Below, one piece after another: positions 827 to 57,616 of a stretch of 64,000 bases of DNA; the first letter of the stretch is position 1, and each line of letters begins with the position of its first letter. The stretch is from the NCBI GenBank assembly GCA_965213625.1, contig CBDBZU010000004.1, positions 3,008,001 to 3,072,000 on the forward strand. Direction: 5' to 3'. The notes beneath the pieces are model-generated. The model had not been told where the DNA came from. It ran no database searches and worked only from the letters and a program-made list of their open reading frames with translations. Position numbers and translations under genes: made by a program. Origin of the DNA: a bacterium. Its GTDB lineage: Bacteria; UBA8248.

Positions 827-1864
827 CTACATCCACGAGAGCGGCGTGGCGGCGTCTCCCCGGAGTCTTCTGGCGGCGTCTTTGGCGAAGTAGGTGAGGA
901 TGATGTCCGCCCCCGCGCGCTTGATCGAGATGAGCATTTCCATGAACGCGCGCTCGGGGTCGAGCCACCCGTTGCGGCACGCCGCCGCCAGCATGGCGAA
1001 CTCGCCCGAGACGTTATAAGCGGCGACTGGCAAGTCCATGATACTCCGCGCGCGGGCGATGACGTCGAGATAGACGAGTGCGGGCTTCACCATCACGATG
1101 TCCGCCCCCTCCTCGATATCGAAAGCTATCTCGCGCATGGCCTCGCGCGCATTCGCCGGGTCCATCTGGTAGGAACTCCTGTCGCCGAAGGCGGGGGCGC
1201 TCTCCGCCGCCTCTCGGAAGGGCCCGTAGTAGGCGCTCGAAAATTTCGCCGAATAAGCCATGATGGGCGTCTGGGCGAACCCGCTTTCGTCCAGCGCCAT
1301 GCGAATCGAGCCGACGCGGCCATCCATCATGTCAGACGGCGCGATGATGTCGGCCCCCGCCTCGGCGTGGCTCATCGCCGTCTGGTCGATGAGTTCGAGC
1401 GTGGGGTCGTTCAGTATCTTCTCGCCCTCGATGATGCCGCAGTGGCCGTGGTCCATGTACTCGCAAAGACAAACGTCCGTGATGACGCACAGGTCGGGGT
1501 ATGCCTCCTTGAGTGCGCGCACCGCGTTCTGCACGACGCCGTCTTCCGCATAGGCCCCGCTCGCGATGTCGTCCTTGTGATCCGGAATGCCGAACAGGAT
1601 GACGCCGGGGATGTCGAGAGCGGTAATTTCCTCACAATCGGCCACCAGACGGTCGACGGAGAGTTGGTATTGCCCGGGCATGGAGGAGATTTCCTGCTTT
1701 ACGTTCTCACCCTCGACCACGAACATCGGGTAGATGAGGTTATCCACGGAAAGTCTCGTCTCGCGCACCATGCGCCGCATAGCGGCCGTCTCCCGCGTGC
1801 GCCTCGTGCGATTTTGCACATCCCCTGCAAGAGCCGAAAGAATCAGATTGTCATCAGGCATCAT
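827..1864 (-). CDS. hemB: Porphobilinogen synthase (Zn-dependent type)
   Basis: [14 protein letters not shown] Zn-Cys motif, SDMMDGR, YGPFREA, MVKP, AYNVSGE. Confidence 0.97.
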
Positions 1865-2721
1865 GAAATATCACCCTCCATTTTCGGCGTTACGTTCGCC
1901 GTTTCCAGTTCCCGGTAAAAAGAGACGATGGCACTCGCCATGCCGGGAATCGTCGATTCGGCGGCCTCGACGTCCGGTTCGACGCCCCACTTACGCGCCG
2001 TGGCGGTGGTCGCAGGCCCGATAGAGGCCACGCGCGCTTGCGCCACCCATCCTTTCACCCTCTCCTCCCCCGCCGCTCTCATGAAGCCATCGAGCGCCGA
2101 GGAACTCGTGAATGTAAGCATATCAATTTTTCCGTCTTCAAGCTCTCCCCAGACATCGCGAAGCGCTTCGCGTCCCAGAGGCGTCGTCCGGTAGACGGCC
2201 ACGTCATCCAGCAACGCTCCCATTCCCACAAGCGCTTTGGGAATGGCGTCTCTCCCCTCTTTCGCCCGGGCCAGCAAAACACGCGCCCCGGCCAAATCTT
2301 CGTTCTCGAAAAGCGCGACGACGCCCTCGGCCACATATTTGCCGGCCACTTTTTGGGGCGTTCTTCCCAAATGCTTTTCCACCGCTGCGGCCGTGGCGGG
2401 TCCTACAGTCAGAATCGATGTTTCCGCTGGAATCGTATCGGGAGCTACGCCGAGAGCGACAAACCTTTTCGCCAGATATTTCGGCCCGTTCGCGCTCGTG
2501 AAGAGTATCCATTGATATTTGTCCAGCGCGCGAACCGCCGCATCCACTGGCGCCCAGTCTTCAGGCTCCGTGATCCGTATCATGGGCGCGACGCGCACGC
2601 ATGCGCCCAGGTCTGAGAGCATATCGCCCATACGCGATGCCCCCTCCTCTGGGCGCGTGACGAGGATTGTTTTGGCCGCGAGCGGACGCTCGCCCGAGTC
2701 TTCGTTTTCAGCTTGACTCAT
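1861..2721 (-). CDS. hemD: Uroporphyrinogen-III synthase
   Basis: ILVTRP, FTSANG, VGPATA, FTSSS, SIGPAT; overlaps hemC and hemB by 4 nt. Confidence 0.93.
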
Positions 2722-3638
2722 CGCGCGTCTCTCAATATTTCCGCCCCGCCATGTGCGAGAACGTCCTCGGCCACCTCATCGGCCATTCTCGTAGCGTCAT
2801 CGGGTGTCCCCGTTCGTTCTCGCTCCACCATCCGCTTCCCGTCGACACTCGCTAAACGGGCTTTAATGATAAACCCGCTTTTTCGAATCTCAGCGAAAAT
2901 GCCCAATGGCAATAGACACCCACCCTCCAAGCGCGCCATTACGACGCGCTCTGCCATCACGGCGCGTTTCGTCTCCTGGTGATTCAAGCCTTCCATCAGG
3001 CGGCGCGTGCCCGCATCATTCTCCCTCGTCTCGATGGCGAGCGCGCCCTGGCCCGCGGCCGGCAGCATGAGTTCGGGCGCGAGTGACTCGGTCGCTCGCT
3101 CCTCCATCCCCAGACGCTTCAGGCCCGCCAGGGCGAGAATTGCGCCTTCCACCTCCCCCGCCGCCACTTTTTCGAGGCGCGTATCCACGTTTCCGCGCAA
3201 CTCCACAATTTCCAGATCGCGCCGGTAGCGCCTGATCTGCGCGATTCGCCTTAAACTGCTCGTGCCGATTCTGCTGCCGGGCGCGAGTCCGCGGATCGAT
3301 TCCCCGCCCCGTGAGACAAGAGCGTCCCAGGGTTCTTCTCTTTCCGGAATCGAGGCGAGGATGAGGCCTTCGGGCAGTTCACTCGGCAGGTCTTTCAGGC
3401 TATGGACGGCGGCATCGATTTTACCTTGTAGAAGAGCGTCTTCGATTTCCTTTACGAAAAGACCCTTGCCCCCCAGTTCATGAATGGGGGAGCCGAGCAT
3501 GGCGTCCCCCCGCGTGCGGACGATAATTTCCTCCACGGCAAGTCCCGGATTCAGTTCCTTCAACTGTGCGGCCACCAGAGCCGTCTGCGCGCGCGCCAGC
3601 GCGCTGCCCCGCGTGCCGAGGCGTAGCGTGTCATTCAT
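2718..3638 (-). CDS. hemC: Hydroxymethylbilane synthase
   Basis: GTRGSALARAQ, GGKGLFVKEIE, VHSLKD, GTSSLRR, LRGNVDTRL, LEGGC. Confidence 0.97.
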   Translation of the reverse strand: MNDTLRLGTRGSALARAQTALVAAQLKELNPGLAVEEIIVRTRGDAMLGSPIHELGGKGLFVKEIEDALLQGKIDAAVHSLKDLPSELPEGLILASIPEREEPWDALVSRGGESIRGLAPGSRIGTSSLRRIAQIRRYRRDLEIVELRGNVDTRLEKVAAGEVEGAILALAGLKRLGMEERATESLAPELMLPAAGQGALAIETRENDAGTRRLMEGLNHQETKRAVMAERVVMARLEGGCLLPLGIFAEIRKSGFIIKARLASVDGKRMVERERTGTPDDATRMADEVAEDVLAHGGAEILRDAR

Positions 3639-3641
3639 GTA

Positions 3642-4949
3642 TCAGTCCGATTCATCCGGTGGCTCGGGCGGTCTTTCATCGCTTTCGGGTTCCACACCGA
3701 AGAGTTTCTGGACGGATTCGACGGAAATGCCCTCCACGTCTTCTTCCGCCATCTGGCGCAGGACGGCGAAGGGATGGTGGAGCAGCTTGTTGACCAGCGC
3801 CTTCGTCATGGCGTCAAGGGCATCGCGACCGTCTTCTCCCAGCTCGGGAAGACGCGGGATGGTTTTTTCGATTTCCGACTGGCGCATCGATTCGGCGAAG
3901 AAGCGAATGGCCGCAAAGGTATGCCTGAGTTCCTCTGCCTTCTGGCGTGCAAGGTAGGTCTCCACCTCGCTATCCAGGATCGCGCGCGCGTCGCGGGCCA
4001 CCTCTTCGCGGTCACGCAGGTTGTCCGCCGCGACGGACTGTAGATCGTCCACGTCATAGAGATAGGCGTCTTCGAGATCGTTCACGTCTGGCGCAACGTT
4101 TCTCGGCACGGCGATGTCGATGAGGAATACCGGCGCGTCGCGGCGGCGTTCCAATGCAGCGGCCACGGTCGGTTTGTCGAGGACAAACTCCTTCGCGGCC
4201 GTAGATGCGATGACGACGTCGGCTTCGATGAGCGCCCCTTCCAGATTATCGAAACCTACAGCGCTTCCCCCGAGCCTGGAAGCCAACTCTTGCGCACGCG
4301 CGAACGTCCTGTTCGCCACGCGGAGGGTGTCGGCCCCGCTCGCTTTGAGATGCCTTGCTGCCGCTTCGCCCATTTCGCCCGCGCCTAGCAGGAGCACGTT
4401 CTTGCTTTCGAGTGAGCCGAATATTCTTTTCGCCAGATCCACGGCGACCGAACTTACCGACACAGGCGACTCGCCAATCGGCGTTTGCTCGCGGATTTTC
4501 TTCGCCACGCGAAACGCGCGGGAGAAGAGGTTCGTGAGGGCCTTTCCGGCGTGGCCCGAGGCCTGGGCGACCCGGTAGGCTTCTTTCACCTGCCCCAAAA
4601 TCTGCGGTTCGCCCACCACCATGGAATCGAGGCTCGCCGCCACGGTGAACAGATGCCGGGTGGCTTCGGCCTCGCGGTGAACGTAAAGATGAGCATTCAA
4701 CTCCTCTACGCCGATGTCGCGCGATTCGAGGAAAAAACGATGGATCGCGTCGAGACCCTGCTCGTAATCCTCCGCCGCGCTGTAGACTTCCACCCGGTTG
4801 CACGTCGAGAGGATGAGCCGCTCCTCCAGCCCGTGGTAGCCCGCCAGACGGTCGAGCCACTCGTCCATATTGCTTTCGGGGAAATAGAGGCGCTCACGAA
4901 CGCTGAGCGGCGTATTGTGGTGGCTCACGCCGGCGAGAATGATGGACAT
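3642..4949 (-). CDS. hemA: Glutamyl-tRNA reductase
   Basis: LSTCNRVE, SLDSMVVGEPQILGQVK, GAGEMG, DIAVPRN. Confidence 0.97.
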   Translation of the reverse strand: MSIILAGVSHHNTPLSVRERLYFPESNMDEWLDRLAGYHGLEERLILSTCNRVEVYSAAEDYEQGLDAIHRFFLESRDIGVEELNAHLYVHREAEATRHLFTVAASLDSMVVGEPQILGQVKEAYRVAQASGHAGKALTNLFSRAFRVAKKIREQTPIGESPVSVSSVAVDLAKRIFGSLESKNVLLLGAGEMGEAAARHLKASGADTLRVANRTFARAQELASRLGGSAVGFDNLEGALIEADVVIASTAAKEFVLDKPTVAAALERRRDAPVFLIDIAVPRNVAPDVNDLEDAYLYDVDDLQSVAADNLRDREEVARDARAILDSEVETYLARQKAEELRHTFAAIRFFAESMRQSEIEKTIPRLPELGEDGRDALDAMTKALVNKLLHHPFAVLRQMAEEDVEGISVESVQKLFGVEPESDERPPEPPDESD

Positions 4950-4952
4950 CTT

Positions 4953-5732
4953 CTAGCCCGCCCCCTGGAAATGGACGACCAGCGCGAGGAGCGCGGCGAA
5001 AAAGGCCACCATCGAGAAAACGGCGGAGCGCTTTCCCTTCCAGCTTCTGGTGAGCCGACAGATGAGCAGGAGACCGTACGCCCCCCAGATGAGTATCAAC
5101 GGCCAGGTCCGCACCGGGTCGAGGCTCCAGTAGGCGCCGTGGCGCGACTTCGCCCACATCGACCCGAGCAGCAGGCTCGCCGTGAGGAACGCGAAGCCGA
5201 AATAGAGAATCTTGTGGTTCAAATCGTCCAGGATATCGAGCGAAGGCAGACGGTGCAGCCAGGCGCTTGGTCTTCTGGATTTTAGCTGCTGGGATTGCAC
5301 GAGGTACATCAGCGCCGAGGCGAAGAGCAGAAAGAACGCGCCCCAGCTCAGCAGCGCGAGCACGGCGTGACCTTTCAGCAGATAGCCCTGCACGGCGATC
5401 GAACCCGCGCCCCACACGCCGGGGAAAGCGGCGGCATATCCCTCGAGGATGAAGGCCGCCGGTACGGCGAAACCGCCCAGAGCGATGTCGCGGTAGCGCG
5501 CGTAGACGATCAGGTACATCAGGATGATTACCCACGCCATGCCGCTAAGCCACGGTCCCCAGCCCTCGGGCGTGCCGGAGGCGAAGCTCACCCCCAGCAT
5601 GAGGGTGTGGAGCGCGAACCCCGCGAGCAGCGCGCCAATCCCGTAGACTACGCCCGCCGTCCTGCCCGTGCAGAGCAGATACAGGTGCGTGAGCGCAGCC
5701 ACGAGATAGCAGCCGATCAATATGGCGACCAA
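4953..5732 (-). CDS. ccsA: Cytochrome c assembly protein (CcsA/HemX-like)
   Basis: Multi-TM protein with RLPSLDILDDLN and a W-rich loop (GSMWA...YWSLDP); 3 nt upstream of hemA. Confidence 0.8.
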   Translation of the reverse strand: MVAILIGCYLVAALTHLYLLCTGRTAGVVYGIGALLAGFALHTLMLGVSFASGTPEGWGPWLSGMAWVIILMYLIVYARYRDIALGGFAVPAAFILEGYAAAFPGVWGAGSIAVQGYLLKGHAVLALLSWGAFFLLFASALMYLVQSQQLKSRRPSAWLHRLPSLDILDDLNHKILYFGFAFLTASLLLGSMWAKSRHGAYWSLDPVRTWPLILIWGAYGLLLICRLTRSWKGKRSAVFSMVAFFAALLALVVHFQGAG

Positions 5733-5901
5733 GGTATTTTCCCTCTCAGCGCAAGGCGGCGCCTCGCGACAAATAATACAGCCCTATCCATCTCTATCCA
5801 TACCAAAGGGCGAGCAAAGCTATTTAGACCACCATTTCGGGCATTTTGCAATTATCCGTTGCACCACGCGGACTCGGAGCGCGGATTCTGCCCATTTCAC
5901 G

Positions 5902-5931
5902 TTGGCTTGAGGCGCTCATTCCCACTATACT
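5902..5931 (+). promoter_or_regulatory. Putative sigma70 promoter for pyrD-pyrK
   Basis: TTGGCT-18 nt-TATACT in the divergent intergenic region. Confidence 0.35.
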
Positions 5932-5985
5932 CCATTCACCAAGCCCGTCCGCCCGTATCCTCCGCCTCGGGAGGGGCAGCAGACC

Positions 5986-6921
5986 GTGATTCCGCTCCCC
6001 AAGATCGACCCGCCCCTTATCAACGCCAGCGGCATTCTGAGCTATCCGGAAGTGTTCGCCGCCTTCGAGAGCGCGGGCGCGTGCCTGGGCGGCTACGTCA
6101 CGAAATCGGTCGGCCCCCGCGAGAAGCCGGGCAACAACAACCCCGTGGTCGTATACCCCCCGGAAGGCGCTGTGCTCAACTCCCTCGCCCTGCCGACGCA
6201 AAGCGCAGAGGACTGGGAGCGCGACCTGGAAGAGATAAAGCTGAAGAAAGCGAAGCTCATCGTCTCGGTCTATGGCGGAGACACCCGGGAGTTCGCCGAC
6301 GTCACAAAACGTATGTCGAGGTTCGGCGACGCCATCGAGGTGAACCTGGGATGCCCAAACAAGGAGCCGGGCGAGCAGACCATCATGGAGAGCATCGGAC
6401 AGAACCCCGCCCTCTCCGCCGAGGTCATCGAGCGCGTGCGAGACGAGACGGACAAGCCCGTCATCGCCAAGCTCTCGCCCAACAGCGACTACCTCGCCGT
6501 GGCAGATTCATGCATGAGCGCGGGCGCGGACGCTCTTGGCTGCGGGAACACCCTGGGGCCGGGTCTTGCGGTGGACATCCAGAGCCGGGCGGCAATTCTC
6601 GCAGGCACGACGGGCGGCATCAGCGGCCCCGCGCTCAAGCCCATCAATTTGCGCATGACGTATGAGTCCTATGCGCGTTTTCGGTGTCCCATCGTCGCAT
6701 ACGGGGGTATCGAAACCTGGGAGGATGCCGTGGAATACATTCTGGCGGGAGCGAGCGTCTTGGGGATAGGCACCGCCTTCATGAGAAAGAGCACGCATGA
6801 GGCCGCCGCACTCACCCGGGATATCTGGGAGGGAATTCAGGAATATCTGGACGGAGAACCCATGTCCGGGCTCATCGGCGCGGTGCACCGCTCGGCGAAT
6901 GGGAGCGAATCGAATGCGTAG
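5986..6921 (+). CDS. pyrD: Dihydroorotate dehydrogenase family 1B catalytic subunit
   Basis: INASG, VTKS, EVNLGCPN (catalytic Cys), KLSPN, GNT, GGISGPALKP, GGI; adjacent electron-transfer subunit. Confidence 0.8.
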   Translation: MIPLPKIDPPLINASGILSYPEVFAAFESAGACLGGYVTKSVGPREKPGNNNPVVVYPPEGAVLNSLALPTQSAEDWERDLEEIKLKKAKLIVSVYGGDTREFADVTKRMSRFGDAIEVNLGCPNKEPGEQTIMESIGQNPALSAEVIERVRDETDKPVIAKLSPNSDYLAVADSCMSAGADALGCGNTLGPGLAVDIQSRAAILAGTTGGISGPALKPINLRMTYESYARFRCPIVAYGGIETWEDAVEYILAGASVLGIGTAFMRKSTHEAAALTRDIWEGIQEYLDGEPMSGLIGAVHRSANGSESNA

Positions 6922-15641: not shown

Positions 15642-16508
15642 TCAGGACGCGCCTAACGCCTTCAGAATAGTTCTGCGGATCAGGACGGGCGCAACCTGAC
15701 GTCTGTAGTCGGCGCTCGCGCGGATGTCGGTCAAGGGATCGAGGTCATCGAGCGCGCCTGCGAGTACGGCGTCGATATTCTCCTGGTTGAGCTCCTTGCC
15801 CTGGAGGCCTTCTTCCACCGCCGTGAGGCGCCTGAACACGGCTTCCACGCCGCCCAGGCCGATTCTCACCTCTTTGGCCGTGTTGCCGTCTTCTTCGGTG
15901 AGAACAGCCGTGGAAATGGAGACGCACGGCTTATCCTCTTTGGAACGCGTTGTGAAGCGCGTGCACGCCGTCCGGAAACCATCGAGCAGCGGGTCGACCT
16001 CAATCGAGCACAGCAACTCATCCTCATCCAGTGCGCACTCGTAATATCCCGTCCAGAACTCCGTCGCCGGAATCACGCGTTCCGTTCCGTTCGCCTTCCT
16101 GGTGTTCATGCGGGCCTCAAGAGCCAGGAAAGCGCCCGGCGGGTCCGAGGCCGGTTCCGCAAAACACAGGTTGCCGCCTATCGTACCCTGGTTACGGATG
16201 CGTATGGTCGCCACGTTGTGAAAAATTTCCCCGAGAAGCGGGAAGCGCTCCTGGACCAGAGGAGAAGTCTCTATTTTGCGGTGCACCGTCTTCGCCCCGA
16301 TGCGGACCCCGCCGTTTTCGGTCTCCTCGATGAAATCCAGATCGCCCGCGCCCGCAATGTCGATTAACACGTCTGGTTCGTACACACCCGATTTCATGAG
16401 AATCGAGAGGGCGACGCCGCCGGCGAACACTTTCCCGTCCTCGCCATGCTCCTTCATGGCGGCGAGCGTTTCCTCCGCGCTGTTCGCGGGTAAATGCCGA
16501 AAAGCCAT
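15642..16508 (-). CDS. Xanthine dehydrogenase family FAD-binding subunit (CoxM/HcrB-like)
   Basis: FAGG, IRNQGTIGGNLC, DIRASADYR. Confidence 0.92.
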   Translation of the reverse strand: MAFRHLPANSAEETLAAMKEHGEDGKVFAGGVALSILMKSGVYEPDVLIDIAGAGDLDFIEETENGGVRIGAKTVHRKIETSPLVQERFPLLGEIFHNVATIRIRNQGTIGGNLCFAEPASDPPGAFLALEARMNTRKANGTERVIPATEFWTGYYECALDEDELLCSIEVDPLLDGFRTACTRFTTRSKEDKPCVSISTAVLTEEDGNTAKEVRIGLGGVEAVFRRLTAVEEGLQGKELNQENIDAVLAGALDDLDPLTDIRASADYRRQVAPVLIRRTILKALGAS

Positions 16509-16527
16509 TTTTTCTCCCCTCTCCTCG

Positions 16528-18813
16528 TTAGTCGCCGTTTTTCTCGTTCAACGCGGCCAGCACCTTCTCCGGCGTAATCGGCAGCGACGTGATACGCACG
16601 CCCACGGCGTTATAAATTGCGTTGCCAATCGCAGCCGAGGTCCCCAACTGCGCCATCTCGCCCAATCCTTTCGCTCCATAGGGCCCCGTGGGGTTTTCCG
16701 TCTCGATGAGAACGGATTCGAGTTCGGGCAAATCCTGGGTGGTGGGCAACTTGTAATCGAGCCAGTTCGCGTTCACCGGTTGGCCGTCTTCGACCTCGAA
16801 ATCTTCCATCATGGCGTAGCCCACGCCCATGAGCGCACCGCCGTCCAATTGTCCCTGCGCGCCAGCCGGGTTCACTATGGTTCCGCAGTCGTTCGTGCTG
16901 ATCACGCGCAACACTTCGAACGCGCCGGTCTCTGTGTCGACTTCCACCTCCGCCACCTTAGCGCCGTAGGCGTAGGCGGCTGACCAGTTCCCATAACCCG
17001 TCACGGGGTCCGGCGTCTCGCTAGGCGAGTCATAAGAAGATGCCGTGTAGACGGCCTCGCTGCCCTCTTTTTCGTATAATTTCATATAGGCTTCGCTGTG
17101 AGTCACCTGCCTCTCGGGAGAACTGGTGACGAATATTTTGCCTTCGCGCGCGTCTAGGTCGTTCGGGTCGCACTCGAGCAGTTCCGCCGCTCCCTTGAAG
17201 AGCATGTTCTTCGCCTGAACAGACGCCAGGCGCGTAGCTTCGCCGTCGATGGTGGTCGTGCGGCTTCCGCGAACGCCCCACCCGTAGGGGTTCACCGCTG
17301 TATCGCCGTTGATGATCCGCACGTCCTCCACGCGTATGCCTATCGCATCGGCGCAAATCTGCGCGAGCGTGGTGTCCGAGCCGTTACCCATTTCGATCGT
17401 GCCCGAGAGCAACTGCACCGTGCCGTCCTTGTTCATCTTGATGAACGCGCCCGCCGTCTCCGGCCCCATCGCGCGCGCGCCTGTGAAGTGGACCGCCGCG
17501 GCCAACCCGAAGCCGCGCTTTTTGCCGTTGCTGCTCGGCTGCTCCTCCCGCCAGGGCACGCGTTTGACCGCCTCCTGCACGCATTCGGAAACACCGCAAC
17601 TCGTAATTTTCGCGCCGATGATTGTAGTGTCGCCCTTTCTCACGAAGTTCCTGATGCGAAACTCCGCCGGGTCCATTCCGATTTCCTCGGCGTGCTTCTC
17701 CATCGCAAGTTCCGAGCCGAATGAATAGCCGCCGTTGCCTATTCCGCGCATCGCGCCGCCGGGCGGTACGTTCGTACAGACGACGTCGGCGTGGTGGCGA
17801 TAGGCCTTGTAGTTGTAGATGCTCCCGCCCATGTGCGCCGTGATGCCGCCGACCGCCGGGCTGTAATCCGAATAACCACCGTTTTCCACCACCATCTTGG
17901 TGTCGCGCGCGAGCAGCATACCGTTTTTGTCGGTGGCAATGCGCCAGACGTGGAACTGCTTCGTCCGGTGCGTGCCGAGGAGAAACTCCTCTTCTCGCGT
18001 GTAGTAGAATTTTACGGGGAGGTCCAGTTTTTTCGCCGCGATGATGGAGAGGAAATCGATGTTGAACTTGCTCGTCGCCTTTCCGCCGAAACCCCCGCCC
18101 ACGTAATTCGTGACAACACGAATCTGGGCTTCGGGAATCTTGAGCAGTTTGGCGAAATACTGGCTCGAAAGACTCGGGCATTGCGAGGAGTTGTAGACGG
18201 TTACGTCGCCCTTCTGCGACCACTCGGCGATAGAGACGTGCGCCTCCAGGGAGCCGTGCATCTGGCGCGAGGACGAGGTGGCCAGTTCACTCACGTGATG
18301 GGCTTCGTCGAACATGCGGTCCACGTCGCCGAATTCCATGTGCTTGGTGAAGGCGATGTTGTCCGGGTACCTGTCGTGGATGACGGGGGCGCCCTCTTGC
18401 ATCGCCTCGTGCGGGTCGAAGACGGCCGGAAGCTCCTCGTAGTCCACGTCTATCAAATCAAGCGCTTCTACCGCGATATCTTCAGATGTCGCGATGACGG
18501 CGGCCACCGAATCGCCCACGTGACGCACCTTGTCAGAGGCGAGGGGACGCTGATCGTAGCAAACGGGCACGACGCCCCATTCCACTTCCTCGGGGATGTC
18601 CCCGGACGTCAATATGAGCTTGACGCCGGGGAGCTTCTCGGCGCGGCTGGTGTCGATGTTCTTGATTCGCGCGTGCGGCAGGGGACTTCCCAGCAGCCTT
18701 CCGTGAAGCATTTTGGGCAACTGAAGGTCGAGGGTAAACATGGCCCGGCCCGTCACCTTTTCCGGCCCATCGACGCGAGGCACGCTTTTTCCGACGTATG
18801 AGAGTTCAGCCAT
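16528..18813 (-). CDS. Xanthine dehydrogenase family molybdopterin-binding subunit (HcrA-like)
   Basis: KVTGRA, VGGGFGGK, AMRGIG, EMGNG, GQLDGG, GAKGLGE; start ATG 18813. Confidence 0.92.
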   Translation of the reverse strand: MAELSYVGKSVPRVDGPEKVTGRAMFTLDLQLPKMLHGRLLGSPLPHARIKNIDTSRAEKLPGVKLILTSGDIPEEVEWGVVPVCYDQRPLASDKVRHVGDSVAAVIATSEDIAVEALDLIDVDYEELPAVFDPHEAMQEGAPVIHDRYPDNIAFTKHMEFGDVDRMFDEAHHVSELATSSSRQMHGSLEAHVSIAEWSQKGDVTVYNSSQCPSLSSQYFAKLLKIPEAQIRVVTNYVGGGFGGKATSKFNIDFLSIIAAKKLDLPVKFYYTREEEFLLGTHRTKQFHVWRIATDKNGMLLARDTKMVVENGGYSDYSPAVGGITAHMGGSIYNYKAYRHHADVVCTNVPPGGAMRGIGNGGYSFGSELAMEKHAEEIGMDPAEFRIRNFVRKGDTTIIGAKITSCGVSECVQEAVKRVPWREEQPSSNGKKRGFGLAAAVHFTGARAMGPETAGAFIKMNKDGTVQLLSGTIEMGNGSDTTLAQICADAIGIRVEDVRIINGDTAVNPYGWGVRGSRTTTIDGEATRLASVQAKNMLFKGAAELLECDPNDLDAREGKIFVTSSPERQVTHSEAYMKLYEKEGSEAVYTASSYDSPSETPDPVTGYGNWSAAYAYGAKVAEVEVDTETGAFEVLRVISTNDCGTIVNPAGAQGQLDGGALMGVGYAMMEDFEVEDGQPVNANWLDYKLPTTQDLPELESVLIETENPTGPYGAKGLGEMAQLGTSAAIGNAIYNAVGVRITSLPITPEKVLAALNEKNGD

Positions 18814-19159
18814 CACAACCTCCACTCGTTCGCGGCATAAAAGCGCATACCGCAGGGCGATTTATATTCTTAATCCTTAACATGAAAATTGGATAGGTAT
18901 ACTGCTTCGAGCACATCGCAATCCCTTCGGGACCCGATAGAATGCGATGGTGTTTCGCTTGCATTCGATGAAGCTATCATAACAACTCAATGAGCAAAAT
19001 AAAACCCCAAAAATCGGCGTATGAGAACCCCTTTCGGCATTTCAGGAAATGGCAGCCTTCCACTTTCTCCTCTACGTTTTGTGGTGTATCATCCGCCGTT
19101 ACGAGAAGCTCAAGACGGACATTCCGTTCATCACAAAACACCAGAACTGGAGTAGCGCA

Positions 19160-19906
19160 ATGCCCATTCGTTTTGATTTTCAGGGCCGCAAGGTCATCCT
19201 CACGGGCGCGGCGGGCGCGATGGGAAGCCGTATTCTGCAAGGATACATCGAGGCCGGCGCCAGGGTTTTCGCCACCGACAGGGAAGGCGAGGCCTTTGAC
19301 GCGATCGATGGCCCATCCGATCAACTCTTCAAGCTGCCCTGCGATCTGGCCGACGTGGACGCAATCCGCACCACCATGCGCTCTGCGCTCGAATGGCTGG
19401 GCGGCTGCGACGTGCTGGCGAACGTGGCCGGCTACATGCCGATTCGCCCGCCTCTCGAACTCGAAGAAGAAGACTGGAACGTCGTACTGAACGTGAACCT
19501 GCTGGCTCCCTACTTCTGCATCCAGGAAACCATCGAGGCGCTCAAGGCCTCGGGCACGGGGCGCATCATCAGCTTCGCGTCCATCGCGGGTAAAATGGGG
19601 GGTATCGGCCCCAACCTCACCTATTCCGCCGCCAAGGCGGGCCTGCTCGCCATGACGTTCAACCTGGCGCGTGAACTCGCCAAGACGGGCGTGACGATCA
19701 ACACCATACAGCCGGGACCCGCCGATACGGGCCTTCACTTCCAGTCCCCGCCAGATATGCTCGTGAACGCCGCAAACGCCCATCCCATGGGCAGGCTCAC
19801 GACTCCTGAGGACGTGTGGCACACCGTCTTGTTCCTCTCGAGCGAGGAGGCTGCCCACATCAACGGCGAGGCGGTGGACGTGAACGGCGGCTTCTGGACG
19901 GATTAG
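19160..19906 (+). CDS. Short-chain dehydrogenase/reductase
   Basis: ATG at 19160 after GGAG; TGAAGAMG, NVAG, YSAAK, DVNGG. Confidence 0.92.
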   Translation: MPIRFDFQGRKVILTGAAGAMGSRILQGYIEAGARVFATDREGEAFDAIDGPSDQLFKLPCDLADVDAIRTTMRSALEWLGGCDVLANVAGYMPIRPPLELEEEDWNVVLNVNLLAPYFCIQETIEALKASGTGRIISFASIAGKMGGIGPNLTYSAAKAGLLAMTFNLARELAKTGVTINTIQPGPADTGLHFQSPPDMLVNAANAHPMGRLTTPEDVWHTVLFLSSEEAAHINGEAVDVNGGFWTD

Positions 19907-19922
19907 CCCGAAGGAGAACACC

Positions 19923-20759
19923 ATGTCGAGCGACAACCCGAAAGGCTATGCGAACCCCGACCTGCTCTGGTCGGTCGAACAACTCAATGTGCGCATGGAC
20001 GACCCTGGCTTAAGAATCATCGACACGCGCCCCGGCGAGCGCTACACAATGGGCCACATTCCCGGCGCGCGGCATTTCGACGTCTACGGCGTGAACAGCG
20101 ATGACTCCGACGAGGCGCCGCTCAGGAATTTTTTCTCCATGTGGGCGTTCTTGCTGGGAAACCGGGGGGTATCCTTCGAGAACACCATCATCTTCTACGA
20201 CGATTTCGTCGGCAACACGAGCGTGCGCGGCTTCTGGATGCTGGAGCTTTTCGGCCACAAGGACGTCCACGTGCTGGACGGCGGCTACGGCGCATGGGAG
20301 CGGGCGGGCTATGAGACGACGCGCGACGCCGAGGTGCCCAAAGCCGCTTCTTTCCAGATGGCGTTCGAGCCGCACCGCCTCGCCACGCGCGAGGACGTAC
20401 TGACGGCCATCGAGGATGACAACCACATGCTCCTCGACACGCGCTCGATTGAGGAGTGGGAGGGACGGGGCAAGAGGGCCAAACGGGACGGAATCATCCC
20501 CGGAGCGGTCTGGCAGGAATGGCTCCAGCACCTGACGCCCGAGGGCGAGATGAAGCCCGCGGATGAGCTTCGCGCGCAGTTCGAGGCCATCGGAATCACT
20601 CCCGAGAAAGAAGTGACCGCCTACTGACAGACGGGCTACCGTGCGGCGCACGGTTATTTCGCTCTCCGTCTTCTGGATTATCCAAAGGTGAGAAACTACA
20701 TGAGCTCCTGGAAAGAATGGGGGAACCGGGAGGATACGCCCATCGTGCAGGCGCAATAG
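19923..20759 (+). CDS. Tandem-rhodanese sulfurtransferase (SseA/CysA-type), probable selenoprotein with Sec at TGA 20625-20627 (278 aa)
   Basis: GHIPGA, VLDGG, LLDTR, GIIPGA. Reading through the TGA gives [48 protein letters not shown], restoring the active-site loop and the C-terminal rhodanese signature. TAG stop at 20757-20759. Confidence 0.9.
20638..20654 (+). promoter_or_regulatory. Candidate bacterial SECIS element
   Basis: ACCGTGC-GGC-GCACGGT perfect 7-bp stem; G-led apical loop starting 18 nt after the UGA. Confidence 0.75.
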
Positions 20760-20898
20760 CGCAGACGCAGCGGTAAATTGAAGGCGCTTGCCTCTATCAT
20801 TCTAATAGTCGATACAGGTTCACGAAATAAACTATCACGGCCACGACATCTTCTGGATGGGGCCATTATCTATCATCATGGACTCTTGGAGGTTTACC

Positions 20899-21914
20899 AT
20901 GAAGAGTAATTTCGTTCGTAATATCCTTGCCGTTGCGCTCGTTTATGCGCTCTCGCCGGCGGGACTCGCCTCGGCTGCGCCCACGCTCAAGCTCGGCGCT
21001 GCCAGCAACACCGGCGGCATGATTGTCTTTGTCGGTGTCGACAAGGGTTTCTTTGCCAAAAACGGGCTGGACGGGAAAGTCGTCGTACGCAACACGGGCG
21101 CCCAGCTCACCAAATCGCTCAAGGCCGGGCAGATCGACTTCGCTCCCGCCGCTTTCACCAACCTGCCGGCGGCTCTGGAGCGCGGCATCAAGGTGCGCGG
21201 CGTAGTAGGCTATGTTGGCGGCTCGTACACGAAATCCACCACGGATGAGATGGTGGGCATCGCCGTGCGCCCCGGAACGGGCGTAAAGAGCATCAAGGAC
21301 TTGAAAGGCAAGAAAATCGGGGCCACCTTCGGCTCCACCGGCGACCTCTACCTCCGCACCCTGCTGGAGAGAAACGGCATCGGCGTGGGCGGCGTGCGCC
21401 GCATCAACGTGCGTCCGCCGAGTCTCGTCTCGCTGTTCGATTCGGGGGCGTGGACGCCATGGTCGCGTGGGAGCCCTACCTCACACGCATGACCGACAAG
21501 GTGAAAGGCTCCTCCATCGTGTCGCGCGGCGGCGACTACGTGTGCTTCTGCGCGGGTATGCACGGCGTGCCGGATCGCGTCTACAAAGACAAAAAGGCGA
21601 CCCAGGCGTTCGTGAACGGCATGTCCGAGGCGGCCGCTTATGTGCGCGACCCCAAGAACATAGACGAGATCTCGAAAATCGGCGCGCGCTACGTCCGCGG
21701 CATGGACGCCGCCCTCATCAAGCGCACCATCAAGTGGTGGACGTATGACACGCGTCTGGGCGAGAACACGCTCAAGGCCTTCAACTTCTCGGTGAAGCAG
21801 CTTATCGCCCAGAAGAAGATGAAGCGCCCCTACGACCCCAAGAAATACTTCGACTTCCAGTTCATCAACCGGACCATGAAGGAACATCCCGAGTGGTTCA
21901 AGGATCTCAAATAG
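20899..21914 (+). CDS. ABC transporter substrate-binding protein (TauA/SsuA/NMT1 family), frameshifted in the G-run at 21444-21448
   Basis: Signal peptide, DLKGKKIG. Adding one G gives DSGGVDAMVAWEPY and joins ORFs 20857..21492 and 21450..21914. Confidence 0.85.
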
Positions 21915-32920: not shown

Positions 32921-33094
32921 TTATTTATCGAGTTCTTCGAGCTTCTCCAATATTTCGAGCAAATGAGGCTTCCCGCCCGCAGGTGGACGCCAGCGCACGT
33001 GCATCACGGGCACGCTCTGGTTTTTTAACTCTTCCTCGAATATCTCAAGCCCGACATTCACGACCCGGAGCGGTTTCCGGCCTAATTCTTTCAT
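32921..33094 (-). CDS. Small FdrA-domain protein (57 aa; below the ORF-track cutoff)
   Basis: Manual translation MKELGRKPLRVVNVGLEIFEEELKNQSVPVMHVRWRPPAGGKPHLLEILEKLEELDK*; resembles the C-terminal tail of E. coli FdrA (VINAGL.SF...VVH.QW.P.AGG); starts 3 nt after the fdrA stop. Confidence 0.85.
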   Translation of the reverse strand: MKELGRKPLRVVNVGLEIFEEELKNQSVPVMHVRWRPPAGGKPHLLEILEKLEELDK

Positions 33095-33097
33095 GGC

Positions 33098-34597
33098 TCA
33101 CCCAACACCCAGCAGTTCCGGTTTCACAAGCGCAGCTGCGAAGCGCGCCGCCTGCGCGTTGGAGGGAAGCACGACCACGCCGGCATCTTCGAGAATCCCA
33201 ACCTGCGCATCCAGCCCTTGCGGGTCATCCATCGTACCCACTACCGAGGCGACGAAAACAGGACGACTCCCCTTCCCTCTCGCGTCTTTTATCGCCCGCA
33301 CGAGAGGCCCCGCCGGGTCCTGTGAACTTGCCCTGCCCAGCATCAGGTCGAACAAGACGACGCCAACGCGGTCACTCGCTGCAGATGCCGCAATCATCTC
33401 CGCGCGGGACTCGGGGTCTATCATCGGGTGGGGCTTGCCGACCGTATAGCGATCATCCCCCAGGTCGAGAATCCGGTGACGGCCTGCATTCTCGTTCCAG
33501 GACACGTCGCCCAGCAACCCCTCGAGAATGAGACGGCTCTCATGGGCGAGCGTGCCGCCCGAGAAAAGCCCCAGCACGCTCGCGCCATCAAGCGCGTCAA
33601 CCTTTCCCAGGGAGGCAATTTTTTCTTTCAGCCCCGCTTGGGCGAAAAAATTTTCAGGCTCGTAGCTCTCGCCTTTCAAAATCGCCGCTACGGCGTGGCC
33701 TGCATCCTCCAGGGTCTCGGCCCAATCGGGATTTTCGGCGCCCAGAAAGCAAACGACGTACGGCTTGTTGAAGTTTTCAAGCGCCTCTTCGATTCTTGGC
33801 AGCACTTCTTCGTCAGGCGGCTTGGAAATGAGCGCCACGATTTCCGTCGCGGGATCACTCGACAGGAAATCGAGCGCGTGGAGCGTCATCAAGCCACCCA
33901 CTTCGGCGGACAGATCGCGTCCGCCCACGCCGATTCCGTGGGAAATCCCCTCGCCCAGGGCATCGAGTTGCGAAGCCACGGCCTGAAGACCCGTGCCCGA
34001 AGCGGCGATGCAGCCCACGCACCCCGGCTTTACAACGTTAGTGAAACCGAGCCCCACGCCCCCGATGTACGCCGTTCCGCAATCGGGGCCCATCAGGAGC
34101 AGATCGCGATCAATGGCCTCTCGCTTGAGCGCCACCTCATCAGCTATGGATACGTTGTCGCTGAAGAGAAACACGTGAAGCCCGCCCCGCAGGGCATCCA
34201 TGGCTTCTTTTGCGGCAAAGGCGCCGGGCACGGAAATCATCGCCAGGTTGGAATCAGGCGCTGCGGCAAGCGCTCCCGCCAGACTCGATGACGTAAAATC
34301 GCTCGCGTCACCATCGCCGACCCGCCCTTGCGTGAGAAAGGCTTTTGCCTCCTCGATCGCATCGAGTGCAAGCGCTCCTGAATCCGCCTCCACGGCCAGC
34401 ACCAGATCATTCGGTCCGGCCTCGACTTCGCTCTCCTCAAACAATCCCGCCTGAGCCAGGATCGCGTGATTCGCGGGCGTGCCCATGAGCGCCGCCATCT
34501 CGGAGACGCCCGGCCTTTTACGAATCTCACGCGCCAGGCGCATGAGTTTTACGGAATCCTGATAAAACGAAGGCAGTACGGCGCTTGCAAGCGGCAA
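33098..34597 (-). CDS. fdrA: FdrA/AllF family protein (succinyl-CoA synthetase alpha-like fold)
   Basis: YQDSVKLM, MGTPAN, FSDNV, MGPDCGTA, ASGTGLQ, GGRDLS, SGGTLA, GKPHPMIDP. Confidence 0.9.
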   Translation of the reverse strand: MPLASAVLPSFYQDSVKLMRLAREIRKRPGVSEMAALMGTPANHAILAQAGLFEESEVEAGPNDLVLAVEADSGALALDAIEEAKAFLTQGRVGDGDASDFTSSSLAGALAAAPDSNLAMISVPGAFAAKEAMDALRGGLHVFLFSDNVSIADEVALKREAIDRDLLLMGPDCGTAYIGGVGLGFTNVVKPGCVGCIAASGTGLQAVASQLDALGEGISHGIGVGGRDLSAEVGGLMTLHALDFLSSDPATEIVALISKPPDEEVLPRIEEALENFNKPYVVCFLGAENPDWAETLEDAGHAVAAILKGESYEPENFFAQAGLKEKIASLGKVDALDGASVLGLFSGGTLAHESRLILEGLLGDVSWNENAGRHRILDLGDDRYTVGKPHPMIDPESRAEMIAASAASDRVGVVLFDLMLGRASSQDPAGPLVRAIKDARGKGSRPVFVASVVGTMDDPQGLDAQVGILEDAGVVVLPSNAQAARFAAALVKPELLGVG

Positions 34598-34598
34598 T

Positions 34599-34784
34599 TT
34601 ATTTCGCTTCTTTGGCGGGTGGAGCGAAGGGCTCCAGCGTTTTCTCGAGTGAGGCGGACGATAGCGTCTGCATCATCTCCGCGACCTCATCGGCATACCC
34701 GGCAATGCGCTCTTCATCTTCCAAGCCGAAGACGTCCCGCCCCATCCGTACGAGTTGTGAGGCAACTTCTGCTTTTTCATTCAT
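34599..34784 (-). CDS. Small acidic helical protein (61 aa), possibly a GatC/AtzG-like amidase partner
   Basis: ATGA overlap with the ubiX stop; MNEKAEV...RIAGYADEVAEMMQTLSSASLEKTLEPFAPP. The helix-helix-EP tail resembles GatC-like proteins. Confidence 0.6.
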   Translation of the reverse strand: MNEKAEVASQLVRMGRDVFGLEDEERIAGYADEVAEMMQTLSSASLEKTLEPFAPPAKEAK

Positions 34785-35395
34785 TCGTTCATCTCCCCAT
34801 CCTGACGCGCCGCGAGGCTCTTTCGCTCCGGGTGCTGGCCACGCCATTGCTCGAAAAGGTTTTGTTCGAGCCCCAGGCAGGTGAGCGTCTTGCCCACCAC
34901 GTGATCGATCAAATCTTCCATCGTCTGCGGTTTGAAGTAGAACCCCGGCGACGCCGGAAGGATGAAAACCCCCATCAGCGCGAGTTTGTGCATATTTTCC
35001 AGATGAATCGCCGAGAGCGGCATCTCGCGCGGCAGGAGAACGAGTTTTTTCTGCTCCTTGAGCATCACGTCCGCCGCGCGGCAGATGAGGTTATCGCCCG
35101 TGCCTGTAGCTATCAACCCCAGCGTCTTGAGCGAGCATGGCGCTATCACCATCGCGTCGAAGCCCGCGCTGCCGCTTGCGGGCCTTGCGCCGATGTCGCT
35201 CTCGGGATGAACGACGCTCGCCCACGAAGAGAGCTTTGCGATATCCACATCCGTCTCATAGCTCAGAACGCGGATGCCCGCCTTGGAGACGACCAAGTGG
35301 GTCTCCACTTCGGGATACGCATCGTGCAAAACTTCCATCAGGCGCGCGCCGTATATCGAACCGGAAGCGCCCGTAATACCCACAACCATTTTCAT
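34781..35395 (-). CDS. ubiX: Flavin prenyltransferase
   Basis: VGITGASGSIYG, ASGS, PCSLKTL, RAADVMLKE, REMPL, PGFY. Confidence 0.93.
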   Translation of the reverse strand: MKMVVGITGASGSIYGARLMEVLHDAYPEVETHLVVSKAGIRVLSYETDVDIAKLSSWASVVHPESDIGARPASGSAGFDAMVIAPCSLKTLGLIATGTGDNLICRAADVMLKEQKKLVLLPREMPLSAIHLENMHKLALMGVFILPASPGFYFKPQTMEDLIDHVVGKTLTCLGLEQNLFEQWRGQHPERKSLAARQDGEMNE

Positions 35396-35420
35396 CGGAA
35401 AACTCCAGCCGCAAGCGAAG

Positions 35421-36311
35421 CTACAAGCGCGTCTTCGATACCTTCTCGTAATCACGATACAACAAGGTGAAATCTTTTTCGATCATCCCGCGTTTGACGG
35501 CTTTCTCCAAAAACTCGAGCGTGGCCTCTCCGTGCTCGGTATGCGCCCTGTGCTTCTTGCCCATCTTCACGGCCATGCCGACGTCTTTGATCATGTTGTA
35601 GACGCGCGATTTGCCGTCCCACTTTTCCGACAATATGTGGTTCGGAAAACGGAACTGGCTCGCGTAGCTCCGCGCGTTCGATACGTTGAACACGTCAATC
35701 ATGTCCTCCACCTTGAGGCCCACTTTTTCGGCGAGTTTTCCTCCCTCGCAGGTCGCCATGAAGATGGAATGGCAGACCATGTTGTGGATGAGCTTCATGG
35801 CGTGGCCCGCGCCGCTCTCGCCCAGGTAGAAAAGATCGTCTGCTATCGGCTTCAAAAATCTTTTCGTGCGGCGGTAGGCCTTCTCGTCACCGCCTATCAT
35901 GAGCGTCAGCGTGCCTGCGGCGGCGCCCGTAGCTCCGCCGCTCATGCCCGCGTCGAGATAAGCCACTCCTTTCGCCTTCGCGCGGCGGGCGATCTTCCGG
36001 CTCACCGCGGGGTCTGAACTCGTGAAGTCATAGAGCACCAGATTCTTTTTCGCGTTCGCCAGAACGCCATTCCTTCCCTTGAGGGCTTCCTCGATTTCAG
36101 GCGATCCCGGCACCACGAAGAAGATGATGCCCGCCTGCCCCACCATCTCGCCAGGCTCAAGAATCTCCACGCCCCGTTTTCTCTCCCAGGGTTCCCTCGC
36201 CTCGGGGACCACGTCCCAAACCATCAAGGGGATTTTCGCCTTGTGCAGATTGCCCGCGACGCCTCGCCCCATGTTCCCCAATCCGACCACGCCTACTTTC
36301 GCTTGCGCCAT
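35421..36311 (-). CDS. NAD(P)-dependent beta-hydroxyacid dehydrogenase family protein
   Basis: GLGNMG, DAGMSGG, GHAMKLIHN, KD. Confidence 0.9.
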   Translation of the reverse strand: MAQAKVGVVGLGNMGRGVAGNLHKAKIPLMVWDVVPEAREPWERKRGVEILEPGEMVGQAGIIFFVVPGSPEIEEALKGRNGVLANAKKNLVLYDFTSSDPAVSRKIARRAKAKGVAYLDAGMSGGATGAAAGTLTLMIGGDEKAYRRTKRFLKPIADDLFYLGESGAGHAMKLIHNMVCHSIFMATCEGGKLAEKVGLKVEDMIDVFNVSNARSYASQFRFPNHILSEKWDGKSRVYNMIKDVGMAVKMGKKHRAHTEHGEATLEFLEKAVKRGMIEKDFTLLYRDYEKVSKTRL

Positions 36312-40662: not shown

Positions 40663-42795
40663 TCAGGTCCTGTCCGCCAGGAACGCCTCGGCTACAAATA
40701 TCCCTCCCAACACGAGGAAAAGAAGCGCGCCCAAGTCGATGAGCCTCAAGATTGAATCCAGCGGGTCCGAGTCGTTCGCAGGCAAATCGCGCACGTCGAG
40801 TTTCTCGAGTTTTTCCTTGAAGGTGCTCATCTCCACGGGGGAGATGTTCACTTCCGAGGCGGGCGCGTTCACAGCCACGAAATGTTTTTCATCGGGCGTG
40901 AGAACACGGTAATACCCTGCGCGATATGCGTCCCGGTAATAGGCGACTGCGGCGCCGCTTCCTGTTTTGCCCAGCCTGAGACTATCGGCAGGTGCTGCTT
41001 CGGAGTCCGGTGTTTTTTCCATAAATTGAATCGCGCGCTCTTCCTGATCAGGCCCGCGTATCTGAATCGCTTCCCCCACCCGCAGAATGGGCGCCCTGAT
41101 TTCAAACGTGTCGCCAGCATTCGCGGATGAAGACACTCCTTTTCGGGTGCCGCCGAGAAAGTCCGAAACGCCCCGCATGAAGGGGACGAAAACGGGCCGC
41201 ACGGCGAGGTCCGTCCAGTCCCGATCGCATGTGGAGCCCCACACCATCACCTGTCCCGAACCCACCGTGCCGACCACCAGGGCGGGGGCGCCGTCTGGAA
41301 GCTCCAGCAAGGTCCGTCCACCTCTCGCAGGTTCAAGCGGCGTGACCCGCGCCAGACGCAAAGCGGAGAAAAACCGCCCGCCGTTCGCCCCCAGCAAAGA
41401 GAAGGCCGGGTGTGCTTCTTCTCCCTGTGCGATCTTGAGGCTTTGTGACGGGCGCAGCGTTTCGGGTTCTCCCGGCGTGGCCGGCATCCAACCGGGTCCA
41501 GCGGATTTTTCACTCGACAACTCGCCGGTGGCCCAGAAAAGCCCGCCGCCTTTTTCAACGAAATTCCTAAGCCCCTGCTTTCCCTGCTCGGGCCAACGAC
41601 CCAGGTTGCAGGCGATGACGAAGTCGTACTCCTCCCATGGCACGTTGTTTAGTTCATAAGACGCCACGACGCGCGTCAGCACAGGGGATTCTCCGCCCAA
41701 CGGGGCGGCGCTCAGGGCGTTGACGATGAAAAACGTCTCACTGTCCTGGAGTCCGCGCTTCGGGTCCCCGTCGATGACCAGCGCACGCAGGCGCTTCCCG
41801 ATACCCGCCGCGAAGTAGAACCGATTCGTCGCCGAGAGGTTGTCCTCCGGCAACTCGAGGCGTCCGTAGAGTACGCCCTTTTCAGGCGCGTTCACCCGAA
41901 AACTCAGTGGACTCGCTCCATTCGGCTCAAGGTCCACTTCTATCGTTTCCTGTAATTCTTCGCCCACGTACAACTGCACGGGCACTTTGGATTTCTTCTC
42001 CTCACCCCGGTTGAAGACACGCGCGCCGATGGTGAAGGAAAAACCCGCCTTGGGAGGCCACGGCTTCATCTTCACGCCCTGAAGACTCAGATCTTCCACC
42101 CCCGCTTCGGGGGCCACACGAACCAATTGAAGATGCACGTGCGGGTTCCATTGCTTTAGATTCCGAATCTGAAACGATTCCCAATCGCCCCGGGCGAAAT
42201 CGCTGAAAACGACGATGTTCCTCCGCCCCGCCTTGGGCGATGCGCTCTCGAGCGCATGCTGGACGATTCGGCCTGGCGCACCCATACCGTCGGTCTGGTG
42301 GACGCGCTCCAGGGCCGCGAGCGCATCCTCGCGCTTCAATTTCTTGAGTGTCGCGGCGGTCGATTCTCCGACGGTCGTCATGATGCTCATGCGATCCGCA
42401 TCGGACATGTCCTCGATCATCCGCCTCACGGCGCGACTGGCCACGTCGAATCGACTGCCCTTTTCCGTTGAAAACGCCATACTCGCCGAATTATCGATCA
42501 CGGCGACGGTGTGAACGGGAAACCATCCGACACCCGCTACGCCGCCTTCGGTCTCAAGGAGAGGGCGCGACGCCAGGAAGATGATGATCCCCACGGCGCA
42601 TACCCGCAGAAACAAGAGTATCCAGTTTCTGAGCCTGCTGCGGTTCGTGATGCGGCGTTGCGTTCTGAGTAAAAACTCGAAAGTGGGAAGCCGATGCCTG
42701 CGGACAAGGCGCCTCCTCAGCAGATGGATCAGGATGGGAAGAAAGACGAGTCCCATCCCCCAGAGAAGCGCTGCGTGTAAAAACTGGAAATTCAA
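40663..42795 (-). CDS. BatA-domain/vWA membrane protein with Ig-like and GATase-like domains
   Basis: LPILIHLL BatA motif, DNSASM MIDAS, FSDF, DNLSATN, FVEKGGGL, C-terminal TM. Confidence 0.85.
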   Translation of the reverse strand: MNFQFLHAALLWGMGLVFLPILIHLLRRRLVRRHRLPTFEFLLRTQRRITNRSRLRNWILLFLRVCAVGIIIFLASRPLLETEGGVAGVGWFPVHTVAVIDNSASMAFSTEKGSRFDVASRAVRRMIEDMSDADRMSIMTTVGESTAATLKKLKREDALAALERVHQTDGMGAPGRIVQHALESASPKAGRRNIVVFSDFARGDWESFQIRNLKQWNPHVHLQLVRVAPEAGVEDLSLQGVKMKPWPPKAGFSFTIGARVFNRGEEKKSKVPVQLYVGEELQETIEVDLEPNGASPLSFRVNAPEKGVLYGRLELPEDNLSATNRFYFAAGIGKRLRALVIDGDPKRGLQDSETFFIVNALSAAPLGGESPVLTRVVASYELNNVPWEEYDFVIACNLGRWPEQGKQGLRNFVEKGGGLFWATGELSSEKSAGPGWMPATPGEPETLRPSQSLKIAQGEEAHPAFSLLGANGGRFFSALRLARVTPLEPARGGRTLLELPDGAPALVVGTVGSGQVMVWGSTCDRDWTDLAVRPVFVPFMRGVSDFLGGTRKGVSSSANAGDTFEIRAPILRVGEAIQIRGPDQEERAIQFMEKTPDSEAAPADSLRLGKTGSGAAVAYYRDAYRAGYYRVLTPDEKHFVAVNAPASEVNISPVEMSTFKEKLEKLDVRDLPANDSDPLDSILRLIDLGALLFLVLGGIFVAEAFLADRT

Positions 42796-42819
42796 GACCC
42801 CTTCCCCCCAAACACCTCT

Positions 42820-43713: not shown

Positions 43714-43736
43714 ACCGATTCCCTTTGAGCAGGCGT

Positions 43737-44789: not shown

Positions 44790-44810
44790 TCGTATCGCCT
44801 CTCGATGGGA

Positions 44811-50116: not shown

Positions 50117-50226
50117 CTCCCGTTTCCCTTATATGAGTGAACGGCGAGGAGCAGAAAATGAATTGTAGTACATGACTCAAATTACCGCACGTTCGTTAAA
50201 TTTACCGCACGCCGACTCCTGCGCGC

Positions 50227-52569: not shown

Positions 52570-52572
52570 CGT

Positions 52573-55951: not shown

Positions 55952-57601
<1,650 letters not shown>

Positions 57602-57616
57602 AGCCGGAGCAGGAAA

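Follow-up and report, generated by a model that had tools for sequence, protein, structure and literature searches.

Selenocysteine (Sec) forms of COG2897 sulfurtransferases have been catalogued since 2005, and a reading of the present DNA from its sequence alone (the sequence-only reading) was right in stating that they had been predicted computationally before. In the accessible portions of the published accounts, the Sargasso Sea selenoproteome of 2005 (PMC1088965) contains three Sec-COG2897 sequences, with a SECIS element drawn for AACY01016424; the 2007 study of Olavius symbionts (PMC1976440) counts three Sec and four Cys forms of COG2897; and the GOS study of 2008 (PMC2398784) counts one Sec and eight Cys forms. 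A 2022 review (PMC9312934) has a COG2897 row, which is taken to belong to its 'Predicted (71)' list, and a 2026 review (PMC13188914) names a 'Rhodanese-like form 4' with the motif UxxG. Single-domain seleno-rhodaneses, as far as the accessible text describes them, comprise form 1 (UxxS), form 2 (COG0607, UxxG) and form 3 (NF041203, rhodanese_LYCAU, CxU), in which Sec likewise sits at or next to the catalytic position. Azotobacter vinelandii RhdA (1E0C) and Thermus thermophilus rhodanese (1UAR) are Cys-type tandem-domain thiosulfate sulfurtransferases. Among recoding signals, the SECIS element of E. coli fdhF serves as a reference, as its short upper stem-loop, located about 11 nt after the UGA and carrying an apical G, suffices for SelB binding.

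The DNA analyzed here (the window, meaning the whole stretch of 64,000 bases, 59.8% G+C) contains a gene at 19923–20759 on the forward strand that is a further, mis-annotated member of this group as the accessible accounts delimit it. Comparison with relatives indicates that the gene very probably encodes a tandem-domain rhodanese in which Sec, inserted at the UGA at 20625–20627, would be the catalytic nucleophile. If the gene is read with translation table 11, the open reading frame (ORF) beginning with the ATG at 19923 ends at this TGA after 234 codons. If the TGA is read as U, residue 235 is followed by 43 sense codons and the TAG at 20757–20759, resulting in a protein of 278 residues. Both readings were found as the sequence-only reading had given them. 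A Shine-Dalgarno-like GAAGGAG (19910–19916, +) was read from the sequence 6 nt 5' of the start codon and may function as such. Like the published Sec-COG2897 proteins (form 4) in the accessible text, the predicted protein is of the two-domain COG2897/SseA type and has its catalytic Cys replaced by Sec, its UQTG matches the UxxG of form 4 (PMC13188914), and the gene has a stem-loop with a G in a small apical loop right after the UGA; the window protein is likened to the published representatives MCY3690685.1, MQG53192.1, and AACY01016424 by their descriptions alone.

The read-through protein matched the Pfam model for Rhodanese (PF00581) in two stretches (E = 1.5e-32), corresponding to two domains in one chain, and the 234-amino acid form of one relative (L023) retains a single such stretch. 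Within NCBIfam release 20.0, no model reached its cut-off for the read-through protein; the best-scoring model, the 3-mercaptopyruvate sulfurtransferase equivalog NF008557, gave 138.9 bits against a cut-off of 250. The score for NF041203 was 30.1 bits against a cut-off of 115, and the window protein was therefore rejected as a member of that family; seleno-rhodaneses of forms 1–3 have one domain, whereas the window protein has two. The best sequence matches in the PDB were 1UAR (4e-41) and 1E0C (2e-40), which share the fold and have the catalytic residue in the same column, but are only about 30–33% identical to the window protein, carry Cys rather than Sec, and have no recoding signal. U235 aligns with the catalytic Cys of both (CRIAERS in 1UAR, CQTHHRS in 1E0C, and UQTGYRA in the window protein), and the loop of 1E0C resembles that of the window protein. 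An AlphaFold2 model built on an alignment of relatives (alignment A1) has a pLDDT of 90.3 and a pTM of 0.91, and a Foldseek search with this model recovered tandem-domain rhodaneses over the whole length, with TM scores of 0.86 to 1UAR and 0.82 to 1E0C. In the model, U235 is located at a strand-to-loop junction, immediately after the strand of residues 230–234 and before the helix of residues 239–250. Given this placement, a 234-residue protein would end before the nucleophile and would also be missing the cradle loop, one helix, and one strand, and the rhodanese fold of the model is complete only with the tail after the UGA. The 34 C-terminal codons 3' of the hairpin (20655–20756, +) are annotated, from the secondary structure of the model and from dN/dS, with the helix 239–250, the strand 256–259, and an 11-residue motif; the residues directly 3' of the U form a stretch of 10, and the 11-residue motif lies further on. 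Alignment and model together assign the predicted product to the tandem-domain rhodaneses of the thiosulfate-sulfurtransferase type with an RhdA-like active-site loop. The loop appears RhdA-like rather than 3-MST-like, by comparison with what we take to be the 3-MST loop motif.

Relatives of the window protein were collected by a search of protein collections, and 120 of the 632 matches were listed. Among the 120 matches listed, 25 are exactly 234 amino acids long, at 70–93% identity, and every match listed with more than 72% identity has this length, bearing out the expectation that standard annotation truncates the gene. Where named by their source, the 234-amino acid relatives are Nitrospinota sulfurtransferases or rhodanese-like proteins, and the 13 truncated rows in alignment A1 all end at ...TAY. 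In the full-length forms, which are about 279 amino acids long and at most 72% identical, the column of U235 holds a C in 16/16 rows of alignment A1. The same 16 relatives have C[QN]TGYRSAHAY in the active-loop columns (one row has CQSGGRSSHAY) and NY.GSW.EW[GA]N in the columns of the downstream motif, in agreement with the UQTGYR loop and the YxGSWxEW-type signature noticed in the sequence-only reading. The in-frame UGA (20625–20627, +), read as Sec, is thus located where the C-terminal rhodanese domain has its catalytic Cys, whether judged by the comparison with relatives, by the alignment with 1E0C and 1UAR, or by the model, and this is where the sequence-only reading had placed it.

The codon at this column was then read directly from genomic DNA, for which 80 loci were fetched and mapped. 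All 28 loci with 73–95% identity to the window protein (L001–L028) have TGA at the column, followed by 42–52 open codons; these loci come from metagenome-assembled genomes (MAGs) labeled Nitrospinota, Nitrospinae, Tectomicrobia, or plain 'bacterium'. The remaining 52 loci have TGC or TGT in 49 cases and GAC in two distant cases, and one locus (L030) is cut by the end of a contig. A maximum-likelihood tree of 59 rows was calculated with the Sec/Cys column masked and the root not inferred. The 29 TGA rows occupy one side of a branch with an SH-aLRT support of 99, so that one state change suffices; they are nested within Cys forms, and their nearest neighbor is the Cys locus L029 (support 81). 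If the distant Cys rows are taken as the outgroup, a single Cys-to-Sec switch would be the simplest reading of these sequences.

A hairpin with a perfect stem of seven base pairs (ACCGUGC/GCACGGU) and an apical loop of 3 nt, GGC, is present at 20638–20654 (+), with the first stem base being the 11th base after the UGA and 10 nt lying between, as had been claimed for a G-led loop. Folding and conservation suggest that it is a putative bacterial SECIS minihelix. It resembles the fdhF SECIS in spacing and loop, but the likeness is by shape alone, as there is no sequence similarity, the loop has 3 nt (GGC), and a bulged U is missing. By itself, the hairpin carries little weight. Perfect stems of at least 7 bp in this placement follow 649 of 63,940 positions in the window (1.0%) and 11 of the 899 TGA trinucleotides on its forward strand, and the region 20625–20684 folds in RNAfold with −19.8 kcal/mol (z = −1.9), marginally better than shuffled sequences, 9 of 200 of which fold as well. 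It is conservation in relatives that lifts the hairpin above chance. A search of 20400–20900 against Rfam gave two chance-level matches (E about 9), neither of them relevant. A longer SECIS that would include the lower stem proposed by RNAfold in the window was rejected because the 3' partner region of that stem varies freely in relatives.

The 30 nt 3' of the UGA are almost identical across the 29 sequences, third codon positions included. Synonymous heterozygosity reaches its minimum for the gene, 0.03, in the windows of 10 codons that begin at codons −2 and −1, compared with a gene mean of 0.30, and marks a zone of suppressed synonymous change that covers the UGA context, the 10-nt spacer, and the hairpin (codons −2 to +9; 20619–20654, +). 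For codons +1 to +10 the value is 0.081 versus 0.314 elsewhere, and 100,000 random codon sets yielded no value this low. Variation returns at codon +10 (TAC in 17 sequences and TAT in 12), which is the first codon past the 3' end of the hairpin. In the 23 Cys orthologs L029 and L031–L052, by contrast, the same codons show ordinary synonymous variation (0.23–0.73), and the hairpin is formed by none of them. The mean folding energy over 36 nt is −11.6 kcal/mol in the 28 Sec loci versus −8.0 kcal/mol in these 23 orthologs. The hairpin region is thus under a constraint that the alignments place at the RNA level and that is absent from the Cys orthologs. Two amino acid changes distinguish the Sec forms: at position +6, A replaces S (TCN to GCG), and at position +9, G replaces A (GCC to GGT). 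It is these changes that make the stem arms complementary. The Sec forms accordingly have RAAHG, whereas the 23 closest Cys orthologs have RSAHA; an RAAH stretch also occurs in L053 and L055, two Cys loci that are more distant. Among 18 distinct sequences, 97.6% of stem cells are paired, five of the seven pairs are invariant, and the other two depart only by unpaired cells, namely a C.A mismatch in mid-stem in L016 and L017 and an A.C at the stem base in L018, none of which is repaired. Compensatory base changes were not found in these 18 sequences, and the covariation score is 0.

The TGA could be a true stop. The product would then have 234 residues, made up of an intact rhodanese domain that is non-catalytic and part of a second one, and the downstream sequence would be untranslated. 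Public annotation follows this reading, as the 25 entries of 234 amino acids among the 120 matches listed attest, and TGA works as a normal stop in the window, where it ends 24 of the 53 picked ORFs, including genes with complete Pfam matches. The same count led us to reject a lineage-wide reassignment of TGA, as it is an ordinary stop for these 24 ORFs. Sec machinery was not seen in the window either: SelA, SelB, or SelD domains were absent from the 52 window ORFs scanned, and scans for tRNA-Sec found none in the 64-kb window or in L001–L028, which hold no tRNA gene of any kind. The tail itself, however, bears the marks of a translated sequence. When substitutions were pooled over the 29 sequences (Nei-Gojobori; 67.5–98% amino acid identity to one another), the codons upstream of the UGA (−225 to −1) gave pS 0.441, pN 0.104, and dN/dS 0.169, and the 33 codons past the hairpin (+10 to +42) gave pS 0.529, pN 0.115, and dN/dS 0.137; from the UGA to the end of the hairpin (+1 to +9), pS is 0.048 and pN 0, values for which dN/dS has no meaning. 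In-frame stops are absent from the 42 codons 3' of the UGA in all 29 sequences, whereas 26 of 29 have one in frame +1. These values show purifying selection to be as strong on the codons past the hairpin as on the upstream part and, on this comparative basis, argue that the tail is translated. In the model, moreover, the tail contributes the loop of the active site together with one helix and one strand, and a stop conserved exactly at the catalytic column in 28/28 species is not what truncation would be expected to produce. We therefore regard termination at this codon as extremely improbable. One might also suppose that a TGC or TGT codon was misread in sequencing or assembly or has recently undergone a pseudogenizing mutation, since the window has at least one likely indel, in the neighboring frameshifted substrate-binding protein gene; with the same TGA in 28/28 independent assemblies of related species and a tail under purifying selection, the probability of such an origin is vanishing.

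The comparative data speak for translation through the UGA and for RNA constraint and do not themselves name the inserted residue, so that near-cognate or suppressor decoding, which the hairpin might stimulate, could place Cys or Trp at the site and yield a full-length Cys or Trp enzyme. The position is that of the catalytic nucleophile, however, and to our knowledge only Cys or Sec works there in the rhodanese fold. If Cys were wanted, a single-base change to TGC or TGT would be simpler, as in the 49 relatives with these codons. The position of the hairpin and its small, G-bearing loop also fit bacterial SECIS elements as the accessible literature describes them, and the MAG of the relative L022 appears in Table 2 of BSepDB (PMC13326102) with 54 selenoprotein genes, among the most selenoprotein-rich bacteria. 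According to the accessible parts of that article, BSepDB screened genomes for SelA, SelB, and SelD, and two further Nitrospinae-labeled MAGs stand in its top-ten table; the accessible part of a sponge-symbiont study (PMC5649159) likewise reports COGs for SelA and SelB in the majority of its bins. Read-through with Cys or Trp is, on this evidence, very improbable, and the Sec-rhodanese proposed in the sequence-only reading is supported by the TGA in 28/28 close relatives, by purifying selection on the tail, and by a hairpin constraint that Cys orthologs lack. Other hidden selenoprotein genes were also sought in the window, by extending all picked ORFs through TGA and by examining the uncovered stretches, and no convincing case was found; the apparent candidates proved to be neighboring genes that share a frame, meaningless extensions, or ordinary genes whose start lies past the TGA.

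For the Sec-rhodanese, dependence on SelB, incorporation of selenium, and the substrates are what we infer, and the mechanism would run as follows. The hairpin at 20638–20654, beginning at the 11th nucleotide after the UGA and bearing G residues in its small apical loop, would act as a bacterial SECIS that brings SelB, with GTP and Sec-tRNA(Sec), to the ribosome while the UGA is in the A site. Translation would then go on for 43 codons, from which the domain would gain its last strand as well as the cradle loop of the active site and the helix of that loop. The chemistry would presumably be the double displacement of rhodaneses with a selenolate in place of the thiolate, in which Sec-Se(−) would accept the sulfane sulfur of a donor, giving an Se-S(−) intermediate, and would pass the sulfur to an acceptor.

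The genomic context of the gene was also examined. A gene for an SDR-family oxidoreductase (19049–19906, +; Pfam adh_short_C2, E = 4.5e-45) ends 16 nt before the rhodanese start codon, and an ortholog with 75–97% identity is located directly upstream in 28/28 Sec-type loci, making it a probable operon partner of the Sec-rhodanese. Downstream of the rhodanese, the window encodes an ABC importer of the sulfonate/taurine/nitrate family, for which all NCBIfam matches are below their cut-offs; among the 28 Sec-type loci, its binding protein is present in 18, its ATPase in 15, and its permease in 14. The importer cassette is missing in 10 of the 28 (L002–L005, L007, L009–L012, and L027, the last of which is cut by a contig end), and, L027 apart, the loci without it have a gene for a luciferase-like monooxygenase 1–2.5 kb after the rhodanese. 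In the window, the gene for the SsuA/TauA-family substrate-binding protein (20857–21914, +) is split into 20857–21492 and 21450–21914, with the break near 21446. The split results from a 1-nt deletion relative to L001 and L025; in L019 and L026, the ORF is intact and has 357–360 amino acids. Either the gene is a genuine pseudogene or the assembly carries an indel here.

A divergently encoded Mo enzyme of the xanthine-dehydrogenase family is present in 23 of the 28 Sec-type loci. In the window, its large subunit and an FAD subunit are encoded at 15642–18825 (−); the best NCBIfam match is the 4-hydroxybenzoyl-CoA reductase alpha model (609 bits, below the cut-off of 994), and no ORF for a 2Fe-2S small subunit was seen beside these genes. 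None of six Cys-type loci examined has SDR, XDH-family, or NMT1 neighbors. As these six loci share none of the neighbors, the gene context of Cys orthologs was rejected as a guide to function, and no function can be transferred from it. The Sec-rhodanese and the upstream SDR may be the two enzymes of a module specific to their lineage, which would be selenoprotein-rich and Nitrospinota/Tectomicrobia-like. Beside the taurine/sulfonate-type ABC importer, this module could serve the handling of organosulfonates or sulfite, or else it could supply the divergently encoded Mo enzyme with sulfur or selenium. As a separate point, creation of the SECIS would have needed two amino acid changes in the active-site helix, so that the RNA element would have shaped the enzyme. 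We consider this whole reading rather improbable.

Several other features of the window were recorded. At 55919–60358 (+), a gene for a NuoF-like subunit precedes one for an FdsA-like molybdopterin formate dehydrogenase (57617–60358, 913 amino acids), and by eye the latter has Cys (..HCTRLCHASS..) where Sec-type enzymes have U. Two long ORFs without a Pfam match, 5295–6665 (+) and 34466–35470 (+), look spurious by eye from their translations, and these stretches are filled, again by eye, by frames resembling dihydroorotate dehydrogenase (about 5990–6918, +) and UbiX (about 34790–35400, −). A protein-like ORF of 57 residues (about 32922–33095, −) starts 3 nt after the TGA stop of an FdrA-like (Ligase_CoA) gene. 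An ordinary heme biosynthesis cluster encoding GlutR, porphobilinogen deaminase, HemD, and ALAD is located at 827–4949 (−), and a block of MoxR, DUF58, BatA-VWA, TPR, DUF4175, and DUF4159 genes is located at 40663–54523 (−).

In their accessible portions, the published accounts of Sec-COG2897 do not describe the Nitrospinota/Tectomicrobia clade, its frozen hairpin, the SDR partner, or a partner function. A search of the literature on Nitrospina, Nitrospinota, or UBA8248 together with selenocysteine or selenoprotein gave BSepDB as the only relevant source, with supplements and the database itself lying outside the search; the clade may already be catalogued in BSepDB or in the supplements of selenoproteome studies. 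The family has been a predicted selenoprotein since 2005, and the gene represents no new kind of biology. For the organisms concerned, public protein sets carry this gene of the clade as a 234-residue fragment without an active site. With the gene annotated as a fragment and no NCBIfam model reaching its cut-off, metabolic reconstructions therefore miss or mis-score a functional sulfurtransferase. For the family, the 29 sequences and the one state change on the tree represent a well-supported, deeply conserved, single Cys-to-Sec switch in a sulfur-trafficking enzyme. The value of the locus lies in clean comparative evidence, in a frozen minimal hairpin with Cys controls, and in a conserved SDR partner. 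With a recoding hairpin that is unusually clean and frozen in sequence, and with matched Cys orthologs for comparison, the clade lends itself to studying what a rhodanese gains from selenium.
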